A DNA stretch of 32,000 bases from Crocosphaera subtropica ATCC 51142 (GTDB lineage: Bacteria; Cyanobacteriota; Cyanobacteriia; Cyanobacteriales; Microcystaceae). The translations under genes and the position numbers were made by a program. Shown here piece by piece: positions 2,670 through 27,574 of this stretch (its first letter is position 1; every line of letters begins with the position of its first letter). The notes under the pieces were generated by a model. It made no database searches. It worked only from the letters and a program-made list of their open reading frames with translations, and was not told the DNA's origin. The DNA is taken from positions 3,120,001-3,152,000 of the forward strand of contig NC_010546.1 of NCBI RefSeq assembly GCF_000017845.1, given 5' to 3'.

Positions 2670-2680
2670 CTGAAAGTTTG

Positions 2681-3523: not shown

Positions 3524-3543
3524 GAGAAACGTAAAAATGATGA

Positions 3544-3948
3544 TTAATCTGATTTAGTCGCAGCGATCGCTAACTTAGCCCCTTGAACTTGACGCACTTT
3601 ATCCATAACGGCAACCACACGACCGTGTTCAACCGCTTTATCCGCATTGATAATCACTAAACTTTCTTGAGCTTGTCCCATTAAACCACTAATCGCATTT
3701 TTGAGATCATTGACTTCTGTGGGTTGACGATCTACAAAAATGTCTCCGTCTGCTTCAACTGTTACATTAATTTGTTGGGTTTTCTGTGGTTCAGTGCTTT
3801 GTGCAGAAGGCAAGTTCACGGGTAATCCTTCAGAACGGGTCAAAAATAGGGTAGAAATGATCACAAAGGCCAAAATTGAGAAAATAATGTCAATCATCGG
3901 CACAATATTAATTTCTGCTGGAGTATCCATTTCATCGGGTAACTGCAT
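3544..3948 (-). CDS. exbD: ExbD/TolR biopolymer transport protein.
   Basis: 134 aa with the INIVPMIDIIFSILAFVIIS N-terminal TM signature typical of ExbD/TolR. It overlaps the exbB stop by 17 nt. An alternative start MDTPAE at 3930 would leave a 1-nt gap. Confidence 0.85.
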   Translation of the reverse strand: MQLPDEMDTPAEINIVPMIDIIFSILAFVIISTLFLTRSEGLPVNLPSAQSTEPQKTQQINVTVEADGDIFVDRQPTEVNDLKNAISGLMGQAQESLVIINADKAVEHGRVVAVMDKVRQVQGAKLAIAATKSD

Positions 3949-4585
3949 AGGGTTTATCTCCTCTCTCGTAGAAACGACGATACAATAGTTCTAATTGACC
4001 TGCATATTCTTGAACTAGGGCAAATTGTTGTAGGTATAAAGAACGAAACGAGTTAGCAAATAATAGGGTCATAATCGCTACCACTAACCCCATCACCGTC
4101 GAGGTTAACGCTTCTGAGATCCCTCCAGTGACATTAGTAGCGTTGGTTCCACTAACATTACCAATGTCAAGAGACGCAAAAGAGCGCATGAGTCCCAAAA
4201 TGGTTCCTAATAGTCCCAACAACGGTGAAACTGCAATAATGGTCTGAAAAATAGTATTAAAGCGTTTAAAAAGAGGGAGTTCTGCTTGAGTTGCCGTCTC
4301 TAAGGCTAAACGAAACTCTGTCGGTGTGGCATCCTGAAGGACTAAAGCTTCTAAAAAAATGCGACACATCGGTAAATCCGCATTTTGCTTCAATTTTGCG
4401 ATCGCTGCTATGGGTTCATTCCCTTGATAAAGTTTCAAGACAGTGGTGATGATCTTTCGTTCACGAGACTTAATCCGATACCAAAAGATGATACGTTCAA
4501 TAATTAAAGCCACGCCTAATAGGGAAAACACAAGCAATGGCCAGGCAACGATGCCACCAGCTACTAAAAAGTTTTTGATCGACAT
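3932..4585 (-). CDS. exbB: ExbB (MotA/TolQ/ExbB proton-channel family).
   Basis: 217 aa with three predicted TMs. The C-terminal half LLGLLGTILGLMRSF...GGISEALTSTVMGLVVAI matches the MotA/TolQ/ExbB channel signature. Confidence 0.85.
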   Translation of the reverse strand: MSIKNFLVAGGIVAWPLLVFSLLGVALIIERIIFWYRIKSRERKIITTVLKLYQGNEPIAAIAKLKQNADLPMCRIFLEALVLQDATPTEFRLALETATQAELPLFKRFNTIFQTIIAVSPLLGLLGTILGLMRSFASLDIGNVSGTNATNVTGGISEALTSTVMGLVVAIMTLLFANSFRSLYLQQFALVQEYAGQLELLYRRFYERGDKPYAVTR

Positions 4586-7600: not shown

Positions 7601-10600
7601 AGGATCAATGGGAACATAAGCCCCCCCTGCCTTAAGAATGGCTAAAATAGCGATAATCATGGACAAAGAACGCTCAACACAAAGCCCGATCAACGTATCA
7701 GGTTTCACCCCAAACCGTTGTAAATAGTGAGCTAATTGATTCGCTTTAATATCCAGTTCTTGATAAGTTAATTGTTGCGTTTCATAGATAAGAGCGATCG
7801 CATTTGGGTTGTTTTTAACTTGCACTTCAAAGAGTTCATGTATAGACCCTTCAACACTTCCCCCACTTTCCACTCTCCCCAAAGAAAGCTGCCGTTCCGC
7901 TTCATTGAGTAAAGATAACTCCGAAATGGGTTGTTCTGCGTCCGCAACAATAGAATCTAACAACGTCTCAAAGCATTTGCCTAAGCGAATAATGGTTTCT
8001 TGCTCAAATAAATCCGTATTATATTCCCAACGACCCCTTAACCCCTCTTCTGTCTCCCTCATAGTCAGAGTCAGATCGAATTTTGCAGTGTGATTATCCA
8101 TTTCCAGAGGTTCCCATTGTAACCCTGGCAGTTCAATGGGGTCTAACGGCGTATTTTCTAGGACAAACATCACTTGAAACAGAGGGGTATGGCTGAGCGA
8201 TCGAGGAACTTCTAACGCTTCTAAAAGCCTCTCAAACGGTAAGTCTTGATGACTGTAGGCCCCTAACGCTACCTGTCGCACCTGTTGTAATAAGTCAAGA
8301 AACGTGGGATTACCTGATAAATTAATTCTTAGGGCTAAAGTATTGACAAAAAAGCCGATCAATCCTTCAATTTCACGATAATTACGGTTCGCAATAGGAG
8401 AACCAATAATAATATCCTCACTGTTACTATAACGATGCAGTAACACCGAAAATGCGCTCAACAACAACATAAATAAGGTGGTTCCTGCTTGATGACAAAG
8501 ACGTTGCAAATGTTGGGCTAGGGGTTGGGATAGGGTAAAAGAAGAAGTTGATCCGTGAAAATTTTGCACAGGTGGACGAGGATAATCACAGGGTAATTCT
8601 AGTAAGGTTGGCGCATCTTTTAACTGCTGTTGCCAGTAAGCGAGTTGAGTATCTAATATTTCCCCTTGTAACCATTTTCGTTGCCAGGCTGCAAACTCTA
8701 CATATTGAAAGGGTAATGCTTCGAGGGGTGACGGTTGTTCTTCACAGAAAGCTCGATACAATGTAGCAATTTCTTGCACCAAAATGCCCATTGACCAACC
8801 ATCAGAGACAATATGGTGCATGGTTAATAATAAAATATGCTCTTGTTCTGCTAGACGCAATAATTTCACTCGCAACAGAGGACAATATTCTAAGTTAAAG
8901 GGTTGTTGTGCTTCTTTTTGGGTTAGTTGTGTAACAATTTTTTCTTGTTTTTCAAGAGGAATGAGACTTAAATCAATCAACGGAATAGATAAATCAGTGG
9001 TTTCCGCAATAGTTAGATAAGGTTTGCCTTCTTGAGTCAGAAAACGAGTGCGTAACACTTCATGACGATCAATAACTTTCTGGAAACTACGGGTTAAGGC
9101 AACAATATTGAAACAACCATGTAAACGCAGTGCGATCGCAATATTATAAAAAGGACTATTCGGTTCTAACTGTGATAAAAACCATTGTCGCTGTTGAGCA
9201 AAAGATAAAGGTAACTCGCCATGACGATCTATTTTTTGAAATGATAAAATCTCTTGCTTTCCTTCCCCATCAATAGCATTAGATAAACTTCTAATGGTTG
9301 GTTTTTCAAATAATACCCGTAACGGTAACTCTCTTTCAAACACTTGCCGAACTTGAGACATCACCCGTGTCGCTAACAGAGAATGTCCCCCTAACTCAAA
9401 AAAGTTATCTTCCACACTCACTTGATTCAAATTGAGAATATTAGCCCAAATACCTGCTAAAATTTCCTCTGTTGCTGTTTTTGGTGCGATATAATCTTTA
9501 TGATTTAATTCAATCTCTGGTAAAGCGTTACGATCAATTTTGCCATTAGGGGTTAACGGTAAACTGTCTAACTCTATAAACCTTGACGGAATCATGTAAC
9601 TGGGTAATTTTTCCGCTAAAAAGTCTTTTAGTGGGGGAGTATGGGTAGAGACAATATAAGCAATAAGACTTTCTTCTTTAACAATAACTACTGCTTCTTT
9701 TACTTGAGGATGAGTCAATAATATTGTTTCTATTTCTCCCAATTCTAGGCGAAATCCTCTTAATTTTAGCTGATAATCTGTTCTTCCTAAATATTCTATC
9801 TCTCCATCTTCCCCATACTTAACTAAGTCTCCTGTTTTATATAAACGACTCCCTGCTTTTCCCCCCCTCTCAAGGGGGGTTGAGGGGATCGCCATAAATC
9901 TTTCTGCTGTTAATTTTGGTCTGTTTAAATAGCCTCTAGCTACTCCCATTCCTCCGATATATAATTCTCCTGGTACTCCTATAGGCACTTGATTATAGTC
10001 TTTATCTAACACATAAAATTGTGTGTTATTAATGGGTTTTCCTAACCTAACTTTATCTGAAGTGACTTGATAAACTGATGACCAAATAGTGGTTTCAGTT
10101 GGGCCATATAAGTTCCAAACTGCTCTAGATTTTTGTTGCAGATGTTGCCCTAAACTGGGATCTAATGCTTCTCCCCCACAGAAAATCGTTAAATCTTTTT
10201 TTCCTTCCCACCCTGATGCGAGTAATAGTTTCCAAGTAGCAGGGGTTCCCTGCATGACGGTTACTTGATGGCTTTCTAACTGTTGCCCTAGGGTAACACC
10301 GTCTTGAGCAACAGTACGGGGAACTAAGACTAATTTTGCCCCAACAATAAGGGGTAAATAGAGTTCTAAGGCAGCAATATCAAAGGATAGGGTTGTTACT
10401 GATAATAAAGTATCATCATCAGTTAATCCAGGTTTTTCACTCATCGAAACAAGAAAGTTACTTAACGCACGATGAGGTATTTGTACCCCTTTGGGAATAC
10501 CTGTAGACCCTGATGTATAAATGATATACGCAAGATTGTCTAAGTTGATGTCTACATCGAGATTTGTCTTTTTTTCTTGATTAATTTCTCCTTGTACTTT

Positions 10601-12370
10601 ATTAATATCAATCAAATATTTCACACTTTCCGAATTCCGAACTCCGCTGCGAAGCAGGACGAAGTCGCCCTCTGAACCCTTGATTAAATAATCAATTCCT
10701 GAATCTTTGATCATAAAATCGAGACGTTGTTCAGGATAGTTGGGGTCTAGGGGTAAATAGGCTCCTCCTGCTTTTAGAATGGCGAGTAAACTAATCACCA
10801 TGTCTAAAGAAGGGTCTAAACATATCCCTACTAAGGTTTCTGGTTTGACTCCTAAACGTTGTAAATAATGAGCCAGTTGATTGGCTTTTTGATTTAATTG
10901 TTGATAGGTTAATGATTCATTGTTAAAAATAACAGCAATTTTATTCGGACTCTTCTTGACTTGTGTTTCAAATAGTTGATGTATGTAAATCTCCCTGCTC
11001 CCTGCTCCCTGCTCCCTTCTGCCTTGTATAAATAACTCTTTTTGTTCAGAATTTGTTAATAAAGAAACTTGCCACGACTGTTGCTCAGGGTTTTGAGCAA
11101 TACTGGTTAATACAGTTTCAAAATGCTTAATTAAACGCTCAATACTACTGCAAGAAAAACGATATTTATCATAACTAATTCGGAAAGCTAGAGGCGATCC
11201 TGGAAGTACAGAAAGGGTTACGGGATAATTAGTTTTTTCAACGCCATAGCCGTCACTAATAGTTAACTGATCACTCCACCCCTGCAACGCTTTATCAAGG
11301 GAAATTGGATAATTTTCAAAGATAACTAAACTCTCAAATAAGGGGGTTCCTCTGGGAACGTCACTCCACCCCTGAATCTCAATTAAGGAACTATAACTAT
11401 ATTGTTCTTTTTCAATTTGTTGTGCTTGTAAATCTTGTAACCAAGACAGTAAAACTGCGTCAGGTTTAACTTCAACTCTGACAGGAAGGGTATTAATAAA
11501 TAACCCTACCATTGACTCAACATCGGTCAAGGAAGGGGGACGACCCGAAACCGTTGCCCCAAAAATAATATCAGACTCTCCACTATAACGACTTAATAAT
11601 AAAGCCCAGGCCCCTTGAAATAGGGTATTAAGGGTTAAACGATGTTTTTGAATGATGCTTTGTAGCGATGCCGTTAAAGAGGCTGATAGTTGATAGTGTT
11701 GTTCGTCCCGTTCTTCTGAAAAAGAATTATTACCAATTCCTAAAACTGTGGGTGAAATTAATCCTTTGAGGGTATTGCGCCAAAATGCTGCTGCTTGCTC
11801 TCGATCTTGTTGTTGTAACCAAGCAATATAATCTCGATAAGGACGAGACGGCTTTAAAAATAAATTTTGTCCTTGACGAAAGGCTTCATAAAAAGCAAAT
11901 ACTTCTTTCAATAAAATGCCATTACACCAACCATCTAACAGTAAATGATGATAGTTCCAGACAAAATAATAAGCATCTTCTTCTACCCGCATTAACCCGC
12001 AACGCATCAGAGGCGAATGGTTGAGGTCAAACCCCTGTTGTTGTTCTGCTACTAAAAAAGTGGCTAATTTTTGTTGTTGTTCGGCCTTAGTTAACCCACG
12101 CCAATCATCCTCTATCCAAGGCAATTCTACCCTTTGATAAACCACTTGTAAGGGTTTTTCTAATTCTTCCCAATAAAATGCTGTTCTAAGAATAGTATGG
12201 CGATCAATGACTGCTTGCCACGCTTGTTTAAAAGCGGATACCGCAAGATTCCCACTGAGTAAACAACTTCGTTGCTCACAATACATTCCTGATGTGGAAT
12301 TATACAATGAGTGAAACAACATTCCCTGTTGCATGGGAGAAAGTTCGTAAATATCAGTAATTGTTTCCAT
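4694..12370 (-). CDS. Bimodular NRPS, C-A-T-C-A-T-E (2558 aa).
   Basis: C1 HHLLLDGW (~11929-11956). A1 core AYIIYTSGSTGIPKG (~10487-10525), YGPTETT, YKTGDL, LPLTPNGKIDR. T1 FFELGGHSLL (~9381-9406). C2 LSFAQQRQWFL and HHIVSDGWS (~8790-8830). A2 AYVMYTSGSTGIPKG (~7376-7410), YGPTENT, PLTPNGKVDR. T2 FFGLGGDSIL (~6221-6245, the GGDS form usual before E domains). E domain HHLAVDGVSWRIL (~5652-5678). The N-terminus METITDIYELSPMQQGMLFH resembles C domains that accept from an E-terminated partner in trans. Confidence 0.95.
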   Translation of the reverse strand: METITDIYELSPMQQGMLFHSLYNSTSGMYCEQRSCLLSGNLAVSAFKQAWQAVIDRHTILRTAFYWEELEKPLQVVYQRVELPWIEDDWRGLTKAEQQQKLATFLVAEQQQGFDLNHSPLMRCGLMRVEEDAYYFVWNYHHLLLDGWCNGILLKEVFAFYEAFRQGQNLFLKPSRPYRDYIAWLQQQDREQAAAFWRNTLKGLISPTVLGIGNNSFSEERDEQHYQLSASLTASLQSIIQKHRLTLNTLFQGAWALLLSRYSGESDIIFGATVSGRPPSLTDVESMVGLFINTLPVRVEVKPDAVLLSWLQDLQAQQIEKEQYSYSSLIEIQGWSDVPRGTPLFESLVIFENYPISLDKALQGWSDQLTISDGYGVEKTNYPVTLSVLPGSPLAFRISYDKYRFSCSSIERLIKHFETVLTSIAQNPEQQSWQVSLLTNSEQKELFIQGRREQGAGSREIYIHQLFETQVKKSPNKIAVIFNNESLTYQQLNQKANQLAHYLQRLGVKPETLVGICLDPSLDMVISLLAILKAGGAYLPLDPNYPEQRLDFMIKDSGIDYLIKGSEGDFVLLRSGVRNSESVKYLIDINKVQGEINQEKKTNLDVDINLDNLAYIIYTSGSTGIPKGVQIPHRALSNFLVSMSEKPGLTDDDTLLSVTTLSFDIAALELYLPLIVGAKLVLVPRTVAQDGVTLGQQLESHQVTVMQGTPATWKLLLASGWEGKKDLTIFCGGEALDPSLGQHLQQKSRAVWNLYGPTETTIWSSVYQVTSDKVRLGKPINNTQFYVLDKDYNQVPIGVPGELYIGGMGVARGYLNRPKLTAERFMAIPSTPLERGGKAGSRLYKTGDLVKYGEDGEIEYLGRTDYQLKLRGFRLELGEIETILLTHPQVKEAVVIVKEESLIAYIVSTHTPPLKDFLAEKLPSYMIPSRFIELDSLPLTPNGKIDRNALPEIELNHKDYIAPKTATEEILAGIWANILNLNQVSVEDNFFELGGHSLLATRVMSQVRQVFERELPLRVLFEKPTIRSLSNAIDGEGKQEILSFQKIDRHGELPLSFAQQRQWFLSQLEPNSPFYNIAIALRLHGCFNIVALTRSFQKVIDRHEVLRTRFLTQEGKPYLTIAETTDLSIPLIDLSLIPLEKQEKIVTQLTQKEAQQPFNLEYCPLLRVKLLRLAEQEHILLLTMHHIVSDGWSMGILVQEIATLYRAFCEEQPSPLEALPFQYVEFAAWQRKWLQGEILDTQLAYWQQQLKDAPTLLELPCDYPRPPVQNFHGSTSSFTLSQPLAQHLQRLCHQAGTTLFMLLLSAFSVLLHRYSNSEDIIIGSPIANRNYREIEGLIGFFVNTLALRINLSGNPTFLDLLQQVRQVALGAYSHQDLPFERLLEALEVPRSLSHTPLFQVMFVLENTPLDPIELPGLQWEPLEMDNHTAKFDLTLTMRETEEGLRGRWEYNTDLFEQETIIRLGKCFETLLDSIVADAEQPISELSLLNEAERQLSLGRVESGGSVEGSIHELFEVQVKNNPNAIALIYETQQLTYQELDIKANQLAHYLQRFGVKPDTLIGLCVERSLSMIIAILAILKAGGAYVPIDPNAPSERIDFLLEDTQINLLLTQRNIDHQWPNTVTVIDLDEKAIAQESPTLPVTDTTSEHLAYVMYTSGSTGIPKGVCIPHRGVIRLVKNSNYVDIREDDVFLQAAPYTFDASTFEIWGALLNGGRLVILPSPTPSLEELGEAIENYGVTTLWLTAGLFHLMVEEKLESFKNVRYLLAGGDVLFPDHVKTVLRTYPHCCVINGYGPTENTTFTCCAVLTDVEQIGHSVPIGRPISQTQVYILDPYLHPVPFGVPGELYIGGGGLARGYLNRPELTAERFIPIPPTPITKGGGKQGERLYKTGDLGRYDRKGNIEFLGRKDNQVKIRGFRIELGEIEAILSQYPKVQSAIAVVKATPQGNKQLIAYVVPKMGEILIIQELKTFLTQKLPDYLHPNHYMILEAFPLTPNGKVDRRSLPQPILSTSTTEAPRNAIETQLVKIWQDVLNLEKVGIEDNFFGLGGDSILAIQIVSRASRQGLKLSPKQLFQHQTIAQLAAVVTSIDSSVGEQGLVTGSLPLNPIQHWFFGQNLAEMAHFNQSAFLEVSQTLNIAQLQTVFAHLIRHHDALRLRFNPTETGWEAMIRDAEDQVPLTHIDLSGLSDEVQEKAIAATANQLQGSLNLSSGPLLRIAVFDLGNSRSNQLLIIIHHLAVDGVSWRILLEDLQTAYQQLAQNQPIELPLKTTSVKTWAKQVQTYLIEGEKDYYWQQVVSKTPVALPVDYPGGKNTVATTEQITVTLDEENTQTLLKTVPKAYDTQINEVLLTALVETLVQWTGQRSLLINLESHGREDIWENINLSRTVGWFTSLFPVFLDVEGSDSLLDALKAVKGQLGSIPHQGIGYGVMRYLYNHQEIQSLAEISFNYLGQFDALLSDNSQFCLSPYDAGLHHHPNQPRPHLLEINGLVMRGQLQFTWSYSNQLHKSSTIEAIAQGFINILERLINDCQDEPLSDISLTDLDQDTLKQVLGMVDFEG
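10627..10647. repeat. Heptamer tandem repeat (TTCCGAA TTCCGAA CTCCGCT) inside the NRPS coding sequence.
   Basis: The 7-nt periodicity can be read directly. The coding-strand form ..GGAGTTCGGAATTCGGAA.. encodes SGVRNSE. The same NNTCGGA heptad family occurs in intergenic DNA at 23595..23631. Confidence 0.7.
10993..11020. repeat. Heptamer tandem repeat (CTCCCTG x3 plus a degenerate 4th unit; GGGAGCA on the coding strand) inside the NRPS C1-A1 linker.
   Basis: Three perfect units at 10993..11013, then CTCCCTT. Encodes ..QGRREQGAGSREIY... The sequence matches the purine-rich core of the dispersed intergenic repeat. Confidence 0.85.
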
Positions 12371-12473: not shown

Positions 12474-13370
12474 TTAAACTGCCCCAACCGTCTCCAAACT
12501 GGTTGGTTTCGATGCCAAGGCTGAAAAGTAAACATCATTTAACTCTGGTTCAACCCCTTGAAACCCATTATTAGGAGATGAGTCGCTGAGCATACGGACA
12601 TATCTTTGTCCCTGTAACATTCGAGAGGTGATCACCGTCCAATTTTTATCGGCTTCTGCTGCTTCAGCTTGACTCATAACTTTCATCCATACTTTGCCCT
12701 GAAGTTGCTGTGTTAACCCCAGAGGACTTCCCTGAGTAATAATTTTTCCTCGGTTTAGAATCGCCATTTGTGGACAAAGCCCGGCCACATCTTCCACAAT
12801 ATGAGTCGATAGAATTAACACCCGATCTTGACTAATTTCTGCTAATAAGTTCTGAAAACGAATCCGTTCAGTGGGGTCAAGGCCAGCCATTGGTTCATCC
12901 ACAATCACCAGTTTTGGCTTTCCCAGTAAAGCCTGAGCAATACCAAACCGTTGACGCATTCCCCCTGAAAATGTCCCTAATTTCTGTTTTCGTTGTTCAT
13001 ACAGATTCACCAGTTGCAACTGATGAGCGACCATTTCTCGCCGTTGACGGGACTGGACAAAGCCTTTAAATACGGCCAGTAAATCTAGCAACTCTTCAGC
13101 AGAAACATTAGGGTAAACTCCAAAGTCTTGAGGGAGATAACCTAACCAACGGCGTGCGGTCTGGGGATTTTGAAAAATATCAACCCCGTCTAATTCAACT
13201 GACCCAGAATCTGCATCTTGTAAGGTTGCCAGGGTACGCATTAAAGTGGATTTTCCGGCTCCATTGGGTCCTAATAACCCAAAAATCCCACAATCAATGG
13301 TTAACGAGATCTCGTGTAAGGCTTGAATGCCATTTTGATAGGTTTTATTTAATTCTTTAATCGTTAACAT
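12474..13370 (-). CDS. ABC transporter ATP-binding protein (ABC-2/DrrA-CcmA-like, with a C-terminal extension).
   Basis: Walker A GPNGAGKST, Q-loop LPQD, signature FSGGMRQR, Walker B LVIVDEPMAGLD, H-loop STHIVED. About 80 aa of extra C-terminal sequence. Confidence 0.9.
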   Translation of the reverse strand: MLTIKELNKTYQNGIQALHEISLTIDCGIFGLLGPNGAGKSTLMRTLATLQDADSGSVELDGVDIFQNPQTARRWLGYLPQDFGVYPNVSAEELLDLLAVFKGFVQSRQRREMVAHQLQLVNLYEQRKQKLGTFSGGMRQRFGIAQALLGKPKLVIVDEPMAGLDPTERIRFQNLLAEISQDRVLILSTHIVEDVAGLCPQMAILNRGKIITQGSPLGLTQQLQGKVWMKVMSQAEAAEADKNWTVITSRMLQGQRYVRMLSDSSPNNGFQGVEPELNDVYFSALASKPTSLETVGAV

Positions 13371-13389
13371 AGACCATACTTAAATTAGG

Positions 13390-14607
13390 TTAATTTCGTT
13401 TCAAGGCAACAATTGGCTCTAAGGCTGCCGCTTGTTTGGCAGGAAACACCCCAAAAAATAGCCCAATGCCACTAGATGTTCCCACAGCGATAATAATGGC
13501 TAAAGGCGATAAATTAGGGGATAAGGGAGAAGCGATGCCAATCAAAGTAATCACACCGCCACCGAGGAAAATTCCGAAGCAACCGCCGACAATCGAGAGA
13601 ATTAACGCTTCAATCAAAAATTGTTGCAAAATATCTCGCTCACTCGCTCCGATCGCTTTACGCAGTCCGATTTCTTGGGTTCGTTCTGTAATGGAGACTA
13701 ACATAATATTCATAATCCCAATACCACCAACCAGCAAAGAAATACCAGCAATCAGAGACAGCATTAAAATAAGTCCTGTGGTAATTTGATCGACGATTTG
13801 TAAAATATCCTTTTGGGTTTCGACATTAAAATCATCTTCCCCCGTAATATTATGCCGTAGTCTGAGCAGATTTTCGATCTGAAATTGGGCTGCCTTAATA
13901 CTATTAGGATCTCTAGCTGAGACAGCAATAAAGGTTACTTGAGTCCCGTAGGGAGAGGTTCGACCGACCAGTTGATTAGCCATGGTGGTTAAGGGAACAT
14001 AAGCAACAAGGTCTTGATTGGTATTGAGAAAAGACCCTTTTGGTTTCATAATGCCAATGACTTCAAAACTCTCTTGTTTAATACGAATTTGTTTTCCGAT
14101 GGCATTTTCTTCTTTAAACAGTCGTTCTTTCAAATCAGGGCCTAAAACGACCACACGGCTATTGCGTTGTAGATCAGGTTCAGAAAAAAATCGTCCTTGA
14201 GCAATTTCATAGTTTCTAACGGTCAAAAAGTCGGGGGTTACGCCAAACACTAACTCCACAGCATTACGACCACGATAGCTAATTAAATCTCGTAGATTAA
14301 GCTGAGGAGCAACCTTAGCCACCGCCGGCACTTGAGAGGCGATCGCTTGAGCATCGGATAAAACTAGGGTTTTGGGTGGTTCTATACTCATATTCCGAGT
14401 GTCTTTAGCACCAGGATTAACAAACAGTACATTGGGGCCTAAGGAATTTAACTGTTCTAAAGCCAATTTTTGACCTGCCTGACCCACTCCTACAATAGAA
14501 ATCACTGAAGCACTACCAATAATAATCCCTAACATGGTTAGTCCACTGCGTTGTTTATTGAGTAGCAAGGTAGCTACAGCCATATTTAATGTTTCTAAGA
14601 TATTCAT
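13390..14607 (-). CDS. MacB/DevC-type ABC permease (MacB periplasmic core domain plus FtsX domain).
   Basis: 405 aa. N-terminal TM (LTMLGIIIGSASVISIV), a large extracytoplasmic domain, and a C-terminal FtsX-type 3-TM bundle with ITERTQEIGLRKAIGA and LEPIVALKRN. The start overlaps the upstream stop as ATGA (14604-14607). Confidence 0.9.
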   Translation of the reverse strand: MNILETLNMAVATLLLNKQRSGLTMLGIIIGSASVISIVGVGQAGQKLALEQLNSLGPNVLFVNPGAKDTRNMSIEPPKTLVLSDAQAIASQVPAVAKVAPQLNLRDLISYRGRNAVELVFGVTPDFLTVRNYEIAQGRFFSEPDLQRNSRVVVLGPDLKERLFKEENAIGKQIRIKQESFEVIGIMKPKGSFLNTNQDLVAYVPLTTMANQLVGRTSPYGTQVTFIAVSARDPNSIKAAQFQIENLLRLRHNITGEDDFNVETQKDILQIVDQITTGLILMLSLIAGISLLVGGIGIMNIMLVSITERTQEIGLRKAIGASERDILQQFLIEALILSIVGGCFGIFLGGGVITLIGIASPLSPNLSPLAIIIAVGTSSGIGLFFGVFPAKQAAALEPIVALKRN

Positions 14608-17048
14608 ACTACAAAATCGATGTCAACAATCATGTCATTGAAATCGTGATCCCCTGCGTTAAAAAATTCTTCAAACCCAAGGGTATTACTATCAATACCA
14701 ATAATATGATCAACTTGATCGGGGTTAGCTTGTCGATAATCGAAGTAAGCAATAGGTCCTAAAATGGGATTGTTATTGATATTGTCAGTGAGAAACTCAT
14801 CGACGGTTCCATCGGCAATCATGAAGGGAGCTAAAATTTTTCGACGATTAGCTGATAAGGTTACTGAATCACTACCACTCCCTTGGACTCCTGCCACTCT
14901 TCGCCGAATGGCGGCCGCTGCATAACCGGGCTCTCCTGGCTGTATGCCGTCAACTTGACCAGTTTCATCGTCTACTTCATAAAAGCCCACAAAGTTATCA
15001 TAAACTGCATCAGCGTTCACGGTAAATTGAACCACGATGTCCTCATCAACTATCCCATCTCCATTAACATCAGCATTACGCAAATCCAAAATCTCTCGCT
15101 GGACACTATCATTTAAGGCGGAGTTTCGAGGAGATGGCTCCTCTGTTATTTCAATACCTAAGATGATATCATCAAAATTTTCTCCATTCTCCCCAGAAAG
15201 CTCAAAATTCAGTTGCAACGGCTCATTAATGTTTCCTGAAGAGGTTCGCACTGGATTGAATCCATTATTAGCCAAGGGTGACGCAAACACAACTTGACTG
15301 TCTGGAGCTTTTTGACTGTTGAGAGTAATTCCACTGAGAATCCCTTCTGTGGTGTTATTTAAAACTGCGTAAAAAGAAATCCTCTGACTACCTGAGAAGT
15401 CTGATAAAATTTGACTGGGATTGGGAAAAACATTGTTAGGTAACTGAGCAAACAGTGGTCTTCCTCGGTTTAAAGCTTCTGTTTGATAATTTTCATCCCC
15501 TGGTTTAACATCAATGATCCCATCCCCATCGGTATCCAACCCTCCCTGATCGTCGTCAACCTCAAATATACCGACTTCAACGGCTCTGGCTAAACTTCCC
15601 CCTAAAAGACGAAACTTAGCATTACTGTTTTGTAAGGGAGAGCCAAGAAACTGCACAATATTGGTTTGCTGATCAAAGCTGAGGGGCAATGTGGAAGCAT
15701 CGGCAAGGGAAAATGTGGCTTGGTTAGTGGCTAAATCAGTAGTATAACCGTCTCCTGGTTCCACCCTAAAACTGACCGTTTCTAAACCTTCTGGGACTCC
15801 ATCGTCAAGAATGGGCAAATCAAGGGTTGCTGTTGTTTCAGTTACGGTGAAAGTAAATCCACTGAGATCCTCATCAACAATGAGAGAATGACCCCCTCTA
15901 ATGCTGGTCTGCTCAAGGTTAAAGTCTGCCAGGCCATTAACCCTATCAGTTCTGACAAACACCGTTAATCCTTCCTTTGGAGGATCTTCAGTCAGGGTTA
16001 AGGTTAGGCTGGCACGGGTTTGCTCGGTTTCAATCAGTAATTCTGGACTACCACTCAATTGAACAATTTGTCCATCGATTTCTCCAGAAGGTGGGGGTGT
16101 TCCAGGGTCCGTTGGAGGTGTTCCAGGGTCCGATTCAGAGATATCGTTAGGGGTATCAGCAAAAGTAACTGTAACAGAACCCCCATTGGGAGCTATGGTA
16201 TAGCCAGACCCCGGTACTAGAGAATAGGTCACATCAAAGGCCCCTTCCCTAATGCCATCAGCAAAAATCGGAGAACTGACACTGGCTACCTGTTCACGAA
16301 TGGTAAAATCAAATCCCGTATTGTCGAAATCAGGAACTGGAAAATCGCCCCCAGATACAGTTACGTTAAAAACATCGATTTGATTTAGGCTTTGAGCCAC
16401 ATTCCCTCTCAGGGTGACTGTTACGCCATTAGCCGGGGGAGGTTCACTGAGTCTAAACCGAAAGACTAGCTGCGTTCCTTGAGATTCAATGAGGGTAGTA
16501 GTCGGAATTTCCAAGCGAACGGTTGGGTCGAAGATTCCGTTATAGGAGTGTTGAACCACTGGAGACAGGACTAACTCATCGACAATTTCTCCAAGGTGAT
16601 AGTTTAAAGACCAATCTCCTCCTTTTTGGGGGTTGCCCACAGGGTTCACTGACGCTGTTAAGGATGTTCTCGTTAGTTGGTGCCAACGGCTCAAAAATTG
16701 TTTTCCGATGGTTCCTGCTGCTACCCGACAGCCATAGAGCGCGACGGAGGTGATCGTTTTTCCCCATTGTTTGAGAGAGAGCGCATGGTCTTCTAAAGAG
16801 GCTAAATTTAGTTGCTGACGGCCAAGATACAAACAGCCAGGAATACCGTGACAGATCAGGTGTAGACTGGTAATACTGGGTTGCTCATTTAACCGTTGGG
16901 TAATCTGTTCAATACTGTCTTGTTGGGGATCAATGACCAGTACCGATGTTGCCTCGGTTACGCCTCTTATGAGTTGTTGGGGGGAGTCCACACCGGGATC
17001 AATAACCGCTAACTTTGTTGGCTCTCCTTTTGAATGATAGTGATTCAT
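14604..17048 (-). CDS. Large DUF4347 / 2x Calx-beta-like / 2x DUF4114 protein with no signal peptide.
   Basis: N-terminal domain: LAVIDPGVDS...SLHLICHGIPGCLYLG...ALYGCRVAAGTIGKQFL...GGDWSLNYHLG (DUF4347 pattern). Two ~110-aa beta-sandwich-like repeats ending in DDGVPEG/ADGIREG (Calx-beta-like). DxDxDG-type loops (DTDGDGIIDV, DVNGDGIVDED). C-terminal FNAGDHDFNDMIVDIDF (DUF4114 pattern). I prefer the MNHYHSKG start at 17048, which has GAGGA about 14 nt upstream. The track start at 17078 would run into the repeat. Confidence 0.8.
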   Translation of the reverse strand: MNHYHSKGEPTKLAVIDPGVDSPQQLIRGVTEATSVLVIDPQQDSIEQITQRLNEQPSITSLHLICHGIPGCLYLGRQQLNLASLEDHALSLKQWGKTITSVALYGCRVAAGTIGKQFLSRWHQLTRTSLTASVNPVGNPQKGGDWSLNYHLGEIVDELVLSPVVQHSYNGIFDPTVRLEIPTTTLIESQGTQLVFRFRLSEPPPANGVTVTLRGNVAQSLNQIDVFNVTVSGGDFPVPDFDNTGFDFTIREQVASVSSPIFADGIREGAFDVTYSLVPGSGYTIAPNGGSVTVTFADTPNDISESDPGTPPTDPGTPPPSGEIDGQIVQLSGSPELLIETEQTRASLTLTLTEDPPKEGLTVFVRTDRVNGLADFNLEQTSIRGGHSLIVDEDLSGFTFTVTETTATLDLPILDDGVPEGLETVSFRVEPGDGYTTDLATNQATFSLADASTLPLSFDQQTNIVQFLGSPLQNSNAKFRLLGGSLARAVEVGIFEVDDDQGGLDTDGDGIIDVKPGDENYQTEALNRGRPLFAQLPNNVFPNPSQILSDFSGSQRISFYAVLNNTTEGILSGITLNSQKAPDSQVVFASPLANNGFNPVRTSSGNINEPLQLNFELSGENGENFDDIILGIEITEEPSPRNSALNDSVQREILDLRNADVNGDGIVDEDIVVQFTVNADAVYDNFVGFYEVDDETGQVDGIQPGEPGYAAAAIRRRVAGVQGSGSDSVTLSANRRKILAPFMIADGTVDEFLTDNINNNPILGPIAYFDYRQANPDQVDHIIGIDSNTLGFEEFFNAGDHDFNDMIVDIDFVV
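16096..16137. repeat. 21-bp tandem duplication (x2) in the linker of the DUF4347 protein.
   Basis: ggtgttccagggtccgttgga / ggtgttccagggtccgattca, encoding DPGTPPT-DPGTPPP. Confidence 0.85.
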
Positions 17049-17077
17049 AGATAATTTTGTTTCCTCACATAAATCCA

Positions 17078-17190
17078 CTTAATGACTCATCATCAAAATT
17101 ATGACGGCAAACCCCTGCTTCCTCTGTTCCCCCTGCTTACCCTACAAGTCATAGTATTCAAAGAGATTTCATATCATATCCCATATCAGT
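17078..17190 (-). repeat. Dispersed ~100-bp intergenic repeat, copy B (inverted relative to copy A).
   Basis: The reverse complement aligns with 1364..1466 (see copy A). It lies 30 nt upstream of the preferred start of the DUF4347 gene. The 17-codon ORF MTANPCFLCSPCLPYKS here and the MTANPSSS... ORF in copy A diverge by frame-breaking indels, so the element is non-coding. Confidence 0.8.
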
Positions 17191-17271
17191 TATTCACCCT
17201 GTTTCAATGTAGGGAATTGGATTATTCATTAATTGATAATTTTTAGCAATTGAGGTTTGCTTCCCCTAATC

Positions 17272-18990
17272 TTAACGCACTTGTTTGAGACTTTCGACCT
17301 TGTCAGTAAATAATTCAGTTAACAAACTGATGACGGTGCGTTCTTCTCGTACTTTAATATTAACGCTCACTGACATTCCTGATTGCAAAGGAATCTCTCT
17401 GCCATTGGTTTCGAGTAACTGACTATCTAATTGAACTGTAACGGGAAATCGGTAATAACGATCAATGTCGTCAGGGGGCAGAGCATCAGAGCCAATGGAG
17501 AGGACTTCTCCTTTAATATCCCCAAATTCACTAAAGGGAAAAGAATCAATTCTGACATCGCTTTTCATGCCTTGACGCACAAAGCCAATGTCTTGGTTCG
17601 TGACATTGACCTCTGCGACAAGATGGTCATCAGGAACAATTTTGAGTAGGGGTTCTGTTTGCGATGGAGGGGGGACAAAACCAGGAGAAGCTTGCAGGTC
17701 AAACACCGTTCCAGCAACCGGCGATCGCAATTCTTGATACTTTAAGGTGACTTGGGTGCTACTAATTTGACTATCGAGTTCGGCGATCCGTTTTTCATTA
17801 TCTACCACAATTTTCGTTAGCTGACTGTCAATATCAGCTATCTTTTGTTGATTATCGGCAATTTTATCCCTAATCTCCCTCTCTGCCAACGCAGTGGTAT
17901 TGGTCAGTTGAGCTTGGGCTTGGTTAATCGCCAGTTGCAATCGTTGTTGTTCTTCAAGCAGTTGCTCAATGGCAGCTAAACGATTTTGCACTTGCTGTTG
18001 TTGTTGTTCATATTCGATCGCTCCATTCCCTCGCTGTTCCACTAACGCAGCATAGCGATCATTAACTTGTTGTTGCTGTTCTTTAATCTGAAGTTTAGCG
18101 ATCGCTCCTTCTTCGAGTAACGGGCTAACATCGGCTAAAATTTCTTGTTCAATGCGTAAACTTTCTCTGGCTTGGGCTTGAGCCAATTGATTGCGAACAT
18201 TAATGTCTTCTAGCACTTGTTTATCTTTAGCCAATTGTACCCTTGCGTCTGCTAGTTGCACTTGATTTTGATTCAGTTGCTTCTGCAATTTTTGCACTTC
18301 TAACTGAGCAGTCGTAGCTCTAGAAACCACCTCGGTTCTTGTGGCTTGCAGTCTAGCCAATTGTTCTGGGGATAGGCTTAAGGCTTGGGTTCCCTCATTA
18401 ACCAGTCCTTCAAACAGACGAGTTTCCCCCACCAGGGAGGTACGGTTTCGAGCCAAATCAGCCACTTCTTTCGGTAATTTAAGTCTTGCGATCGCCTGTT
18501 CAACTTTAGCAGCGTCTAAGGACTGCTCCATCAGGGTTTGATAAAATTTATTTTCCTGTTGCAAAGTCTGGCGAATTTTTTTAAAGGAGGCTAATTGAGC
18601 AGTGGATGCAGTGGAGTCGAGTTTCAGTAACAATTGATTCTTCTTAACCCGTTCTCCATCTTCAACATAAACTTCTTGCACCACGCCATTGACAGGGGAC
18701 TGAATTTCTTTGACGCTTCCTTGGGGCTTTAATTGTCCTTGGGCCGGGATCACTTGCTCAATCTTCGCCACATTGGCCCAAACCAAACCGATAGTTGTCA
18801 CCCCTAAAATCGCACCAACCACAGCCCTTGACCAATGAGGGGTTTGTCTCAACATCACAGACCGATCAAAGCTGCGTTTAGGAGAAAACCGTCTGAGGGG
18901 CCAAGTAGATGACGGCGGAGAATCCAAAGAAGGGCTTATTGGTTCTTCAGATTGGGGACTATTACTAAGGTCATTTTGATAGCGATTCAT
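17272..18990 (-). CDS. HlyD-family type I secretion periplasmic adaptor.
   Basis: 572 aa. A single N-terminal TM (AVVGAILGVTTIGLVWA), a lipoyl-like motif (VKEIQSPVNGVVQEVYVEDGERVKKNQLLLKLD), a very long Q/L/A-rich coiled coil, and a C-terminal beta-barrel segment (GMSVSVNIK). Confidence 0.9.
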   Translation of the reverse strand: MNRYQNDLSNSPQSEEPISPSLDSPPSSTWPLRRFSPKRSFDRSVMLRQTPHWSRAVVGAILGVTTIGLVWANVAKIEQVIPAQGQLKPQGSVKEIQSPVNGVVQEVYVEDGERVKKNQLLLKLDSTASTAQLASFKKIRQTLQQENKFYQTLMEQSLDAAKVEQAIARLKLPKEVADLARNRTSLVGETRLFEGLVNEGTQALSLSPEQLARLQATRTEVVSRATTAQLEVQKLQKQLNQNQVQLADARVQLAKDKQVLEDINVRNQLAQAQARESLRIEQEILADVSPLLEEGAIAKLQIKEQQQQVNDRYAALVEQRGNGAIEYEQQQQQVQNRLAAIEQLLEEQQRLQLAINQAQAQLTNTTALAEREIRDKIADNQQKIADIDSQLTKIVVDNEKRIAELDSQISSTQVTLKYQELRSPVAGTVFDLQASPGFVPPPSQTEPLLKIVPDDHLVAEVNVTNQDIGFVRQGMKSDVRIDSFPFSEFGDIKGEVLSIGSDALPPDDIDRYYRFPVTVQLDSQLLETNGREIPLQSGMSVSVNIKVREERTVISLLTELFTDKVESLKQVR

Positions 18991-19032
18991 CGTAGGTTGT
19001 CTTTCCTTTCAATCTAGATACGTTTAATTTTG

Positions 19033-22000
19033 TTATTGTGAGACACGCTTCATCGATTTCTGTTTATTGTATAAAGCGTAGTAATGTTTTTTTCGCCTCA
19101 TTAAGTCTCCATGAGTCCCCTGCTCGACAATTTGGCCTGCTTCGAGCATGACAATCACATCTGCTGATTGCACTGAATTGAGACGGTGAGTGACAAAGAA
19201 AACCGTACAGTCTCGAAAGGCTTGGCTTAGATTCTTAAATACTTTTTGTTCTGTTTCATAGTCCAAGGCACTGGTGGCTTCATCCAAAACCAACAGCCGT
19301 GGCTTTTGCAATACAGTGCGAGCAATGGCAATGCGCTGTCGCTGTCCTCCTGAAAGAGTTGCTCCTCGTTCTCCCACCTTTGTGTCATAACCGTTGGGTA
19401 AGTTCATAATAAATTCGTGGGCTTCTGCAACTTGGGCTGCTTCAATAATTTCCTCTGACGAGGCTTCTGGATTCGCTAAAGCAATATTATCCCAAATGGT
19501 TCCCTCAAACAATAGGGAGTTTTGCAGTACCACCCCAATTTGACGACGCAGGGAATAAATTTCGACTTTGCCGATGTCATAGCCATCGATAAAAATCGCC
19601 CCTGAGTCGGGTTCGTACAGTCGAGATAATAACTTGGTGAGGGTACTTTTGCCGGCTCCGCTCGAACCAATAATGGCTGTAAAGGTGCCTGGGGCTAATT
19701 CGAGGTTAATGTCTTGTAATTGCCAAGGACCGTAAGATTGGAAGCGAAAGGAAACCCCTTGGTATTTCACTGCACCTTGGATTAAGGGCATGGGGATATT
19801 TCGGCGATCGCGTTCTGATTCTTGGGGGGTATCGGCAATATCGGCTAATCTTTCCAGGGAGAGGGCGGTTTCTTGGAAGTTTTGCCACAGTTGGCTTAAC
19901 CGTAGAATAGGAGAGGTCACATAACCGGCAATAATCCGAAAGGCGATCAATGCGCCTAGGGTTAATTCTCCTTCAAGAACTAAATAAGCCCCCACCCAAA
20001 TCACCAGTAAGCCTGAGACTTTATTCAAAAACTGCGTCCCCGCATTGGCCAAATTGGAGGTAATTACGGTTCTAAAACCAGTGGTCACATAACGAGCATA
20101 GCGTTCTTGCCATTCTTCACGCAGTTGATTTTCAATATTTTGGGCTTTGACGGTTTGTACCCCAGAGAGAACTTCTACTAAATGGGATTGGGTTTCGGCG
20201 TGACGTTGGGCTTTGAGTCGTAACTGTCGGCGAATGATGGGAGACACCAGTAAGGTTAGTCCCATAAATAGGGGAATGATACTCAAAGAAACCAGGGTTA
20301 ATAAGGGGCTATAAACGATCATCACCCCTAGATAAATAATAGAAAAAACCGCATCTAAGACCACGGTTAAGGCGGTTCCTGTCAAAAAGCGACGCACCCG
20401 TTCTAATTCATTAATACGAGTGGCAATTTCTCCGACGGGTTGTTTTTCAAAATAACTCAAGGGTAGCCGTAGCAAATGGTCAATCATTTCTGACCCAAGG
20501 CTCATATCAATGCGATTGCTGGTATCGGTAAATAAATAGGTTCTTAATGCAGATAGTAAAGCTTCAAAGATAGCCACGATGAGGAGAAAAACCCCCAATA
20601 CTTGTAGAGTGGCTGCGCTATTTTGGATAATGACTTTATCAATGATGACCTGAATCATCAAGGGATTGGCCAAGGCGAACAATTGCACAAAAAATGAGGC
20701 AATCAAGACTTCGATTAACACTCGACGATAACGGACAACGGAGGGCAAAAACCAACGGAGATCAAAGTGTTCACGGGGAGTATGACGAGGAGGAGATAAT
20801 AGCAACACCTCTTGTTCCGACTCTTGCCAATCTTCGGGTAAGTCTGCCAATGGCCAATGGAGAATCCCCTGTTGAGGAACCCCAAGAATTAGGTTGTGAC
20901 GGGTGATCTCATAAACGATCGCCAGGCTTCCTTGCCAATGAATTAAAAAAGGGGTGTGCAAGCGAGGGAACACATAGCCAGGAACCGTCATTTGTTGGGG
21001 ATTAAGTTCCATCAATTCCGCAATTATTCCACATCCCATCAAAGAAAGATGACTATGACGTTTCAACTGCTCGACTAAGATGCGTTGAATCACTTCCCGA
21101 CGAAAGGGGATATGGAAATAGAGACTGAGCATTTGAAAACAGGCAATCCCTATCTGTAAGGGGTTATTTCCTTGGACATAGGGGTAATTTCTCGGTAAAT
21201 TAGTCCTTCGTAACTCCCTAGGAATTTCTTGATAGTTGGCAATAAATTCCACTTCAGGGATGAGATAGGATTGTTTTGAGGGTACCATTGTTCCTGGGGC
21301 TGTTCCTTCCCCCATAGCCACCTCTGCTAACTGTCTCTCTTCTACGGCTAGTTGCACCGCAGGAACCCCCACTAACCGAACGGGTTCTGTGCCTTCTACC
21401 TCAATATGTTGCCAGGGTTGAAACCTGAGACAGCTACCCACAGGACAATTAGGGATTTTTCCTCCACTACTAATTAACCAACTTTGTTGAGGGTTATGTA
21501 AGTGAGGATGTTCGGCATAGAGTGATTCTCCTGGGGGTAAGTAGTAAATTTGAGTTTCTTCAAGGGCTAGGGCTGCTAAGGCTTTGAGATCGGTTTCTCC
21601 TTGAGCTTGTTGGGTTAGTTGATAACCCATTAATTCAAACAGTTCCACCAAGGCACAGCGATCGCATAGTTCTGCTTGTAAACTTGGATATTGTTCTAAA
21701 TATTCCTGAAAATCCCCCTCATCTACCATTAAACCAATGATTTCCGTTGAGGCAATGGCTGTCTCACAGCCGATCCCCCTGGCCAAATTCACCCAACCCA
21801 AAATTGACCCTGGCCCCACGATTTCTAAGGTAACAAACTGTTGGTTACAAGGATTAAACCCCAGAGTTCGTGCTTGTCCTTGGTATAGGATGACAATATA
21901 GGGAAGTTCCTCGTCTTTTCTAAAGATGACTTCTCCCATCGGATAACGAACAGGACGGACTCTTTGGGCTAACGCTGCGATCGCCGTTGGGGGAAGTTCT

Positions 22001-22056
22001 CCAAAAATGGGGTGTTTACTAAGAAATAATGTTATTTGTGGGATCAGGGAATTCAT
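19033..22056 (-). CDS. ABC exporter with an N-terminal cNMP-binding-like domain and a C39-like domain (HetC/bacteriocin-exporter architecture).
   Basis: 1007 aa. Residues ~15-125 have a CAP-effector-like fold pattern. Residues ~290-410 are C39-like (..LQIGIACFQMLSLYFHIPF...PFLIHWQGSLAIVYEI..). Six-TM ABC_membrane region. NBD with Walker A GSSGAGKST, signature LSGGQRQRIAIAR, Walker B LLVLDEATSALD, H-loop VTHRL. Confidence 0.9.
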   Translation of the reverse strand: MNSLIPQITLFLSKHPIFGELPPTAIAALAQRVRPVRYPMGEVIFRKDEELPYIVILYQGQARTLGFNPCNQQFVTLEIVGPGSILGWVNLARGIGCETAIASTEIIGLMVDEGDFQEYLEQYPSLQAELCDRCALVELFELMGYQLTQQAQGETDLKALAALALEETQIYYLPPGESLYAEHPHLHNPQQSWLISSGGKIPNCPVGSCLRFQPWQHIEVEGTEPVRLVGVPAVQLAVEERQLAEVAMGEGTAPGTMVPSKQSYLIPEVEFIANYQEIPRELRRTNLPRNYPYVQGNNPLQIGIACFQMLSLYFHIPFRREVIQRILVEQLKRHSHLSLMGCGIIAELMELNPQQMTVPGYVFPRLHTPFLIHWQGSLAIVYEITRHNLILGVPQQGILHWPLADLPEDWQESEQEVLLLSPPRHTPREHFDLRWFLPSVVRYRRVLIEVLIASFFVQLFALANPLMIQVIIDKVIIQNSAATLQVLGVFLLIVAIFEALLSALRTYLFTDTSNRIDMSLGSEMIDHLLRLPLSYFEKQPVGEIATRINELERVRRFLTGTALTVVLDAVFSIIYLGVMIVYSPLLTLVSLSIIPLFMGLTLLVSPIIRRQLRLKAQRHAETQSHLVEVLSGVQTVKAQNIENQLREEWQERYARYVTTGFRTVITSNLANAGTQFLNKVSGLLVIWVGAYLVLEGELTLGALIAFRIIAGYVTSPILRLSQLWQNFQETALSLERLADIADTPQESERDRRNIPMPLIQGAVKYQGVSFRFQSYGPWQLQDINLELAPGTFTAIIGSSGAGKSTLTKLLSRLYEPDSGAIFIDGYDIGKVEIYSLRRQIGVVLQNSLLFEGTIWDNIALANPEASSEEIIEAAQVAEAHEFIMNLPNGYDTKVGERGATLSGGQRQRIAIARTVLQKPRLLVLDEATSALDYETEQKVFKNLSQAFRDCTVFFVTHRLNSVQSADVIVMLEAGQIVEQGTHGDLMRRKKHYYALYNKQKSMKRVSQ

Positions 22057-23520: not shown

Positions 23521-23594
23521 GGAATTTATGTTCTAGGGTTGTTTTTTAGTCAAGATTCCGGTGAGGGGAAGTATGGGAAAAAATAACTCAACCT

Positions 23595-27541: not shown

Positions 27542-27574
27542 AATAATAAACTAAAGATACCGTAAACCCTGTCA

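Follow-up and report, generated by a model that had tools for sequence, protein, structure and literature searches.

A 32,000-nucleotide stretch of the Crocosphaera (Cyanothece) subtropica ATCC 51142 genome (NC_010546.1, positions 3,120,001 to 3,152,000; here called the window and numbered from its first letter) contains a tight unit of three genes, in which a large acidic protein headed by a DUF4347 domain, cce_3058, is followed by a MacB/DevC-type permease and by an ABC-2-type ATP-binding cassette (ABC) ATPase. A type I secretion gene pair lies immediately upstream and a nonribosomal peptide synthetase (NRPS) gene directly downstream. How should a permease be read when the ATPase beside it belongs to another family? 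The explanation that we favor, and to which we would give about an even chance of being correct, is that of a type I secretion passenger and an accessory MacB/DevC-like permease encoded in a siderophore-type NRPS island, with the ABC-2 ATPase juxtaposed to them. The layout is real, although it resembles a recent mosaic of gene order more than it does a novel type of pump. Each component is of a known kind. It is unusual to find a type I secretion pair and a passenger with a protease head together with a MacB-type permease and an ATPase that is not its cognate one, and this combination is kept only in a narrow Crocosphaera-related clade.

The minus strand carries all of the relevant genes, from the HlyB-type ABC exporter through the major facilitator superfamily (MFS) transporter downstream of the NRPS. 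The exporter (1007 aa, 19033..22056; Pfam cNMP_binding, Peptidase_C39, ABC_membrane and ABC_tran) and an HlyD-family membrane-fusion adaptor of the type I secretion type (572 aa, 17272..18990; Pfam HlyD_3 and HlyD_D23) form the upstream pair that a first, sequence-only reading of the window had already placed there. They are followed by cce_3058 (814 aa, 14604..17048), the permease (405 aa, 13390..14607), the ATPase (298 aa, 12474..13370) and a two-module NRPS (2558 aa, 4694..12370). The junctions that had been described as making a tight unit were measured exactly as claimed, and the arrangement recurs in independent loci. The permease ATG at 14607 overlaps the TGA of the large open reading frame (ORF) as ATGA, and the permease stop at 13390 and the ATPase ATG at 13370 leave a spacer of exactly 19 nt. 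The stop side of the large gene also stands as first drawn. Its start does not, since GTG 17078, to which the ORF extends, is less likely than ATG 17048, where the orthologues start and upstream of which GAGGAA is found. In Pfam the large protein matched DUF4347 and DUF4114, as had been called from the letters, the permease matched MacB_PCD and FtsX, and the third protein matched ABC_tran. Sequence identity is 100% both between the large protein and the metaclust entry 43989.cce_3058 and between the ATPase and an NCBI protein of the same strain.

The type I part of the explanation is carried by the upstream pair and by the properties of cce_3058. The exporter has an N-terminal cyclic nucleotide monophosphate (cNMP)-binding domain followed by a C39-like domain, a transmembrane domain and a nucleotide-binding domain (NBD); it scores 731.3 against the NCBIfam model TIGR01846 (type_I_sec_HlyB), above the cut-off of 725.55, and its closest PDB sequence match is E. 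coli HlyB (E = 1.7e-169). A PDB sequence search with the C39-like domain alone gave no useful alignment. Read by eye against the C39 consensus, the positions that we take to be its catalytic Cys and His (domain 20797-21204) appear as Ile (QIGIAC) and Leu (GSLAIVY), which would make the domain, behind the cNMP-binding domain, non-proteolytic. HlyD has a single hydrophobic segment near residue 56. No TolC-like outer-membrane factor is encoded within the 32-kb window, which is compatible with a type I system, such a factor being usually unlinked. The protein cce_3058 has a pI of 4.17, a net charge of about -70, 3 Cys and 11 Lys, and no hydrophobic segment, transmembrane segment or signal peptide (maximum Kyte-Doolittle score 1.1). 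Two DxDxDG loops (aa 505 and 660) precede DUF4114, and the C-terminal 60 aa (pI 4.05) end in the acidic-plus-hydrophobic sequence DHDFNDMIVDIDFVV (...DIDFVV), where the secretion signal is putative. The absence of an N-terminal hydrophobic signal, the loops and the acidic C-terminus had all been noted from the letters, as had the fit to a type I substrate, and all four hold. Signal-less, acidic, Cys-poor and encoded next to an HlyB-type ABC exporter and HlyD, cce_3058 looks like a type I secretion passenger.

The unit recurs in a clade of six loci, which are the window, L081, L082, L083 and, both from Crocosphaera sp. Alani8, L091 and L092. In every locus of sufficient length, namely the window, L081, L082 and L091, the order HlyD-DUF4347-FtsX-ATPase is kept. 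HlyB immediately precedes HlyD in the window, L081 and L082; L083 and L092 are cut upstream and keep DUF4347-FtsX-ATPase-NRPS. In the contigs that continue beyond the ATPase (L081, L083, L091 and L092), the next gene is an NRPS gene. At L091:265-3414 a 371-aa ORF of no assigned function precedes HlyD in place of HlyB, and the order is therefore adaptor, DUF4347, permease, ATPase, NRPS. Between the large gene and the permease the spacing is -4 to 13 nt, with the ATGA overlap in the window, L083 and L091 and a spacer of 3-13 nt in L081 and L082. Transporter proteins of the clade are 78-94% identical to those of the window (permeases 82-91%; HlyD 78-89% in L081, L082 and L091), and the orthologues of cce_3058 are 54-67% identical (omega, the ratio of nonsynonymous to synonymous rates, 0.13-0.17). 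All five genes are under purifying selection, with omega of 0.04-0.17 and a synonymous divergence (dS) mostly >1. Such conservation bears on the simplest alternative, in which the genes have no functional relation, are neighbours by descent in a young lineage and owe their spacing to the compact operons of a gene island. That order and tight spacing are kept at dS >1 under purifying selection, and that start/stop overlaps are conserved, makes this improbable. Its narrow taxonomic range and the mosaic dS pattern described below would fit it, as would two irregular genes that suggest dispensable parts: the DUF4347 gene at L083:544-2986 is split into ORFs of 511 and 215 aa, and the L082 ATPase (9282-10136) has an in-frame stop at about codon 237 next to an intact permease. 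Both may be assembly errors in metagenome-assembled genomes (MAGs) or may indeed mark dispensable parts.

The adjacent ATPase had been described as ABC-2/DrrA-like with a C-terminal extension, and this description fits. Its motifs are GPNGAGKST and FSGGMRQRF, its top NCBIfam matches are GldA (189 bits, cut-off 402.6) and DrrA (184 bits, cut-off 312.45), both under cut-off, and about 70 residues extend past the ABC_tran match. Nor does it group with the LolD/MacB ATPases, as the FtsE/MacB-like models reach only about 107 bits on it and it is 27% identical to the MacB-type ATPases considered below. Orthologues at 70-75% identity are many and spread across cyanobacteria, and their sources annotate them as 'ABC-2 type transport system ATP-binding protein'. 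Inspection of three of their contexts (Calothrix, Capilliphycus and Trichormus) reveals in 3/3 a protein of ~1200 aa encoded 3-500 nt downstream, with 10-12 hydrophobic segments, weak ABC2_membrane matches and an M1-peptidase-like C-terminal half. Within this pan-cyanobacterial ATPase family, which normally partners the ABC-2/M1-like membrane protein, the ATPase of the window is the local orthologue. The flanks support the same history. In Trichormus (L088) an MFS_3 gene (62% identical) and in Calothrix (L084) a Suc_Fer-like gene (44% identical) precede the ATPase, and the window carries both an MFS_3 exporter (22234-23520, minus strand) and a Suc_Fer-like thioredoxin-like ferredoxin (23707-24798, minus strand) upstream of HlyB. 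In the window, whose flanks are thus common to L084 and L088, MFS_3 and the ATPase are separated by the HlyB-HlyD-DUF4347-FtsX block. Compared with the L084, L086 and L088 pairs, the window lacks the downstream 1200-aa gene, the NRPS taking its place, and has a MacB-type permease before the ATPase. The ATPase clade is not on a long branch, being 70% identical to the rest of a family whose members are mutually 73% identical, and it has only seven clade-typical substitutions at conserved sites.

The pair of this ATPase (about 295 aa) with the ~1200-aa protein is itself widespread in cyanobacteria (L084:8001-13003, L086:8001-12499, L088:8001-12500). It is often found near Fur, TonB-dependent receptor or Suc_Fer-like genes, and the M1-aminopeptidase-like half of the larger protein is without HExxH.

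A second line of evidence comes from the divergence between the window (12474-22056) and L081 (5090-16255). Calculated per 100 codons, dS is about 0.5-1.8 across HlyB, HlyD, DUF4347 and FtsX, with a few chunks higher or saturated. It drops at the FtsX|ATPase boundary: FtsX gives 0.46-1.83, the ATPase 0.15-0.39 and the NRPS 0.05-0.19. The ATPase therefore shares its history with the NRPS block and not with the FtsX block, and the drop indicates recombination or replacement of one block between otherwise collinear loci.

The permease itself matches MacB_PCD (E = 1e-51) and FtsX (E = 9e-21) in Pfam, and its best NCBIfam match is MacB (269 bits). Its topology comprises TM1, a periplasmic MacB_PCD domain between TM1 and TM2, and three further transmembrane (TM) segments. 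It belongs to a small clade whose members are at least 74% identical, the next relatives being housekeeping cyanobacterial permeases at no more than 68%, and by these identities it is a lineage-specific paralogue of the housekeeping MacB/DevC-like permease. The housekeeping loci are organized as membrane-fusion protein (MFP)-permease(-MacB-type ATPase); the ATPases adjacent to the paralogues are of the classical MacB type (GPSGSGKST, LSGGQQQRV), and many paralogous permeases have no adjoining ATPase at all. The permease of the window carries the canonical coupling helix ITERTQEIGLRKAIGA, and its major coupling helix VSITERTQEIGLRKAIGA (helix ERTQEIGLRKAIGA) differs by one conservative change from those of the paralogues; judged from its residues, the coupling helix shows no adaptation to an ABC-2-type ATPase. 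No MacA/DevB-type adaptor is encoded in the operon, the sole adaptor being the type I-like HlyD, which the large gene separates from the permease, and a tblastn comparison of HlyD with the MFP genes upstream of paralogous permeases gave no match at E<1e-8. A scan of the genome collection with the permease returned best matches at 60%, which are the housekeeping paralogue with neither DUF4347 nor the window-type ATPase nearby, and no further copy of the cassette.

Taken together, the evidence points to the ATPase after the FtsX gene being a juxtaposition rather than a designed pair. Several observations weigh against our favored explanation. On the type I side, the best match of HlyD, TIGR01843 (type_I_hlyD), reaches 186.9 bits and falls below its cut-off of 208.65; cce_3058 has no GGxGxDxUx repeats-in-toxin (RTX) nonapeptide and no HemolysinCabind Pfam match; and a literature search on cce_3055-3060, including expression and localisation, found no report. 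On the side of the ATPase, purifying selection acts on its gene (omega 0.10-0.13), which lies 5-24 nt from that of the permease in each of the six loci. Moreover, the window encodes neither an ABC-2-type permease nor a MacB-type ATPase, so that the sole ATPase in cis to the permease is the mismatched one; no second Crocosphaera copy of the ATPase is found among the top 120 matches; the MFP-X-permease-ATPase arrangement of Alani8 is a DevBCA-like order; and the dS break is clear for the window/L081 pair only.

One alternative built on such observations is a hybrid tripartite pump, in which an HlyD-type adaptor, a MacB-type permease and an ABC-2-type ATPase would follow the DevB-C-A order with the DUF4347 gene inserted. 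The type VII permease would then be driven by an NBD from outside the MacB clade, and the pump would export the NRPS product and/or aid the release of the DUF4347 protein. The adjacency in six loci and the low omega of the ATPase speak for such a pump, as does the fact that the window offers neither protein another partner. So do the persistence of the order in Alani8 without an adjacent HlyB and the two most striking clade-typical substitutions, T161M and, past the Q-loop in the helical subdomain, Q97L, which fall at otherwise invariant ATPase positions in most clade members. However, neither substitution is present in L082, where the ATPase also carries the in-frame stop. The coupling helix is the same as in paralogues that use MacB-type ATPases, and the ATPase is not accelerated relative to orthologues that pair with ABC-2/M1-like proteins, retains the ancestral MFS_3/Suc_Fer synteny and is set apart from FtsX by the dS break. 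To our knowledge, all characterised MacB-fold transporters use NBDs of the MacB/LolD/FtsE clade, which also counts against the pump. For these reasons we consider it possible but unlikely. A fuller form of the same idea, in which a MacB-fold permease recruited an ABC-2/DrrA-clade ATPase and an HlyD-type adaptor and in which coupling to the DUF4347 protein reflects joint release or processing of a type I secreted surface protein in iron scavenging, seems to us doubtful. The mismatch between transporter subunits thus stands as a layout and is weakened as a dedicated pairing by the partner of the ATPase family, the synteny, the coupling helix and the dS break.

What kind of passenger would cce_3058 be? 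Its DUF4347 domain (aa 13-172, 16533..17012; Pfam E = 1.3e-47) is confidently modelled by AlphaFold2 (AF2; pLDDT 91.6 for residues 1-182), and the best Foldseek match of the model in the PDB is 9qpe_G, Tce1 in the Hcp3-Tce1 complex (E = 4e-5, TM-score 0.55). Legumain and caspase-3/-7 come next with probabilities of 0.9-0.99 and TM-scores of only 0.3-0.4. Conservation was assessed in 173 domains of a family that comprises 12,774 representative clusters. His67-Gly68 (97-98%) and Cys107 (98%) are nearly invariant, the range with Gly106 being 95-98%, and in the model strands 59-65 and 101-105 precede H67 and C107. The model therefore predicts a caspase-like or cysteine protease domain (CPD)-like, that is clan CD-like, fold with a conserved putative His/Cys dyad (His67, 16848-16850; Cys107, 16728-16730). 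Apart from the work on Tce1, the literature found on DUF4347 consists of passing mentions. Tce1 is PA0256, a DUF4347 protein (PMC8262886), and a 2026 paper describes Tce1 and Tce2 as putative cysteine proteases with a His/Cys dyad that can be aligned to the TcdB/MARTX CPD, the toxicity of Tce2 in yeast depending on the predicted active site (PMC13323088).

In the remainder of the protein (residues 183-814), the AF2 model is confident only in two beta-sandwiches (about aa 183-302 and 327-452, 15693..16502; pLDDT 80-90), which are joined by a Pro/Thr-rich linker and whose top Foldseek matches are NCX1 CBD12 (E = 6.9e-9) and CALX CBD12, followed by Ig-like adhesin domains. Pfam Calx-beta (PF03160) gave no match at E<=10 with whole cce_3058 or its sub-segments. 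The Calx-beta domain named by the sequence-only reading thus holds at the level of fold alone, since the hidden Markov model is silent and the predicted structure matches tandem Calx-beta domains. A PDB sequence search with cce_3058 found no match. The C-terminal DUF4114 domain (aa 738-812, 14613..14837; Pfam E = 1e-11) falls in a low-confidence region of the model; a secondary account describes the DUF4114 of M. xanthus PilY1.1 as Ca-binding and links it to Ca-dependent adhesion (PMC12058595, citing Xue 2022). Given the DUF4347 caspase-like head, the Calx-beta-like sandwiches, the Ca-loop region and DUF4114, cce_3058 probably binds Ca and resides at the surface or outside the cell, with a head that acts as a protease or in autoprocessing.

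A protease-like head beside an FtsX-family permease raises the further alternative of FtsEX-like regulation, in which the periplasmic domain of the permease would bind and mechanically control the DUF4347 Cys-peptidase domain, with no transport of the large protein. DUF4347 could, for example, hold a type I secreted adhesin in place as a retention plug and cleave itself to release it. FtsEX control of Cys-peptidase-type hydrolases and the LapA/LapG release of a retention module are precedents. The conserved translational coupling between the DUF4347 gene and the permease agrees with this idea, as do the predicted folded head with its protease-like dyad and the N-terminal position of DUF4347 in 125/172 domain copies aligned from the best matches. 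We nevertheless consider it very improbable, as the linkage of DUF4347 to FtsX is limited to one narrow clade and the permease is closer to efflux-type MacB/DevC proteins than to FtsX.

That limit was established around eight more distant DUF4347 genes, none of which shows the link to FtsX. In Gloeocapsa PCC 73106 (L089) a 44% homologue comes after Suc_Fer-like and MFS_3 genes, with no type I secretion genes, FtsX or ATPase nearby; this protein (P0006) has RTX repeats in place of the DUF4114 tail. L106 carries TonB, two ABC_membrane_2 genes and a DUF4347/FG-GAP protein and no FtsX. In L105 there is no transporter upstream of the DUF4347 gene, which reaches the end of the locus, so that its downstream side is outside view. 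Ten metagenome loci (five of them distinct and long) with a DUF4347 34-40% identical showed no FtsX, HlyB or HlyD within 10 kb; they came from a scan with a DUF4347 alignment. The gene order is thus conserved within the six-locus clade and not beyond it, and a recurrent position of DUF4347 genes before FtsX permeases in cyanobacteria finds no support outside that clade.

DUF4347-headed proteins adjoin the same iron-uptake genes in three loci (window 25832-29284 and 22234-24798, L089:1156-9407 and L106:753-9053), and this link recurs more widely than the one to FtsX. The common neighbours are the ABC_membrane_2/SbmA_BacA pair, the Suc_Fer-like gene, MFS_3 and TonB. Each of the three proteins has its own tail: the one in the window ends in DUF4114, that of Gloeocapsa PCC 73106 in RTX repeats and that of L106 (MAG P01_A01_bin.84) in FG-GAP.

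The mechanism that we favor sees in the region a composite segment for export, set within an iron-acquisition island of the NRPS siderophore type. The HlyB-type exporter, HlyD and an unlinked TolC-like duct would secrete the 814-aa protein by type I secretion. The permease would be co-transcribed and translationally coupled with the large gene and would most likely serve the efflux of the NRPS product as an accessory component of MacB/DevBCA-like kind, possibly driven by a MacB-type ATPase encoded elsewhere. MacB-type pumps adjoining NRPS genes are familiar from pyoverdine and the Pseudomonas lipopeptides, and the proposed role is likened to these known siderophore and lipopeptide clusters. 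The ABC-2 ATPase would be a resident of the older MFS_3/Suc_Fer locus, beside which the HlyB-HlyD-DUF4347-FtsX block was inserted or recombined, so that the ATPase now adjoins the FtsX gene. The sequence-only reading had proposed the DUF4347 protein as a dedicated partner or cargo of a MacB-like pump. As cargo it is unlikely, because MacB takes its substrates from the periplasm and the 88-kDa protein has no signal; type I secretion is the simpler export route for cce_3058.

Several known systems resemble parts of this region. Cyanobacterial siderophore clusters such as those for cyanochelin and anachelin combine an MFS exporter, a thioredoxin-like ferredoxin and TonB-dependent uptake, sometimes with a DevBCA-type trio, and their ABC subunits are sometimes encoded elsewhere. 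The cyanochelin B cassette CctA-J of Leptolyngbya sp. NIES-3755 has an MFS exporter, the thioredoxin-like ferredoxin CctD, an ATPase encoded in trans and, as an option, DevBCA homologues (bioRxiv 10.64898/2026.07.30.741596). Like the window, it has a siderophore-type NRPS flanked by an MFS exporter and a Suc_Fer-like ferredoxin, TonB-dependent uptake genes, and a second efflux system (optional there) with a MacB/DevC-type permease, and one of its ABC ATPases is supplied in trans. Its efflux genes form a canonical DevB-DevC-DevA trio, whereas the window has a type I HlyD adaptor, an ABC-2 ATPase, a DUF4347 gene between adaptor and permease, and an extra HlyB exporter. MacAB-TolC, PvdRT-OpmQ and the Pseudomonas lipopeptide exporters (PMC5985334; PMC8788793) share with the window a four-TM permease, the MacB periplasmic core domain, the conserved coupling helix and an NRPS neighbour. 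Unlike these systems, the window has no fused or adjacent MacB-clade NBD and no MacA-type adaptor, and its outer-membrane factor is unlinked.

For the passenger, the closest comparison is with HlyBD-TolC and its RTX substrates, which likewise combine an ABC exporter bearing a C39-like domain, an HlyD adaptor and an acidic, signal-less, Cys-poor passenger encoded next to them; by contrast, the exporter of the window has an extra cNMP-binding domain and its passenger lacks RTX nonapeptides. MARTX (multifunctional-autoprocessing RTX) toxins also contain a clan-CD-like Cys protease domain, but theirs is internal, whereas that of the window lies at the extreme N-terminus and is DUF4347 rather than C80. 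Tce1 of P. aeruginosa (PDB 9qpe) has the DUF4347 domain and the His/Cys dyad in common with the window protein and is its best structural match. However, Tce1 and Tce2 are small (190-310 aa) Hcp-loaded type VI secretion system cargo, and the DUF4347 of the window heads an 814-aa multidomain protein encoded next to type I secretion genes.

The pairing matters beyond this locus. If it were true, the MacB-fold coupling interface would accept the NBD of another ABC clade, which bears on the modularity of ABC transporters, and under the hybrid reading this would be the first case of a type VII ABC system powered by an NBD from outside the MacB clade. If it is false, the locus serves as a clear caution against reading adjacency in biosynthetic islands as subunit pairing. 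For the very large DUF4347 family, the analysis assigns to the N-terminal head a fold of the caspase/CPD-like kind and a His/Cys dyad that is conserved, and the repeated position of DUF4347 proteins beside cyanobacterial iron-uptake genes offers a lead on extracellular proteolysis or adhesion in the iron acquisition of marine diazotrophs.

The rest of the island continues on both sides. ExbB, ExbD, TonB and an MFS transporter lie downstream of the NRPS (1494..4585, minus strand; Pfam), and two ABC_membrane_2/SbmA_BacA half-transporters lie upstream of the Suc_Fer-like gene (25832-27541 and 27575-29284, minus strand; Pfam). Promoter and terminator scans of the locus gave counts not usefully over those in shuffled sequence, with no terminator between the genes, and a search of the window for Fur boxes of the E. 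coli-type consensus found nothing over chance expectation. The spacer between HlyD and the DUF4347 gene contains an AT-rich motif, AATTATCAATTAAT (17215-17235, minus strand), which the corresponding spacers of L081 and L091 show in semi-conserved form. A gene of the DUF3102/UPF0137 family (29528-30505), placed between the ABC_membrane_2 pair and a stand-alone condensation-domain gene (30637-31884), is the sole non-overlapping plus-strand gene of at least 100 aa in the window.

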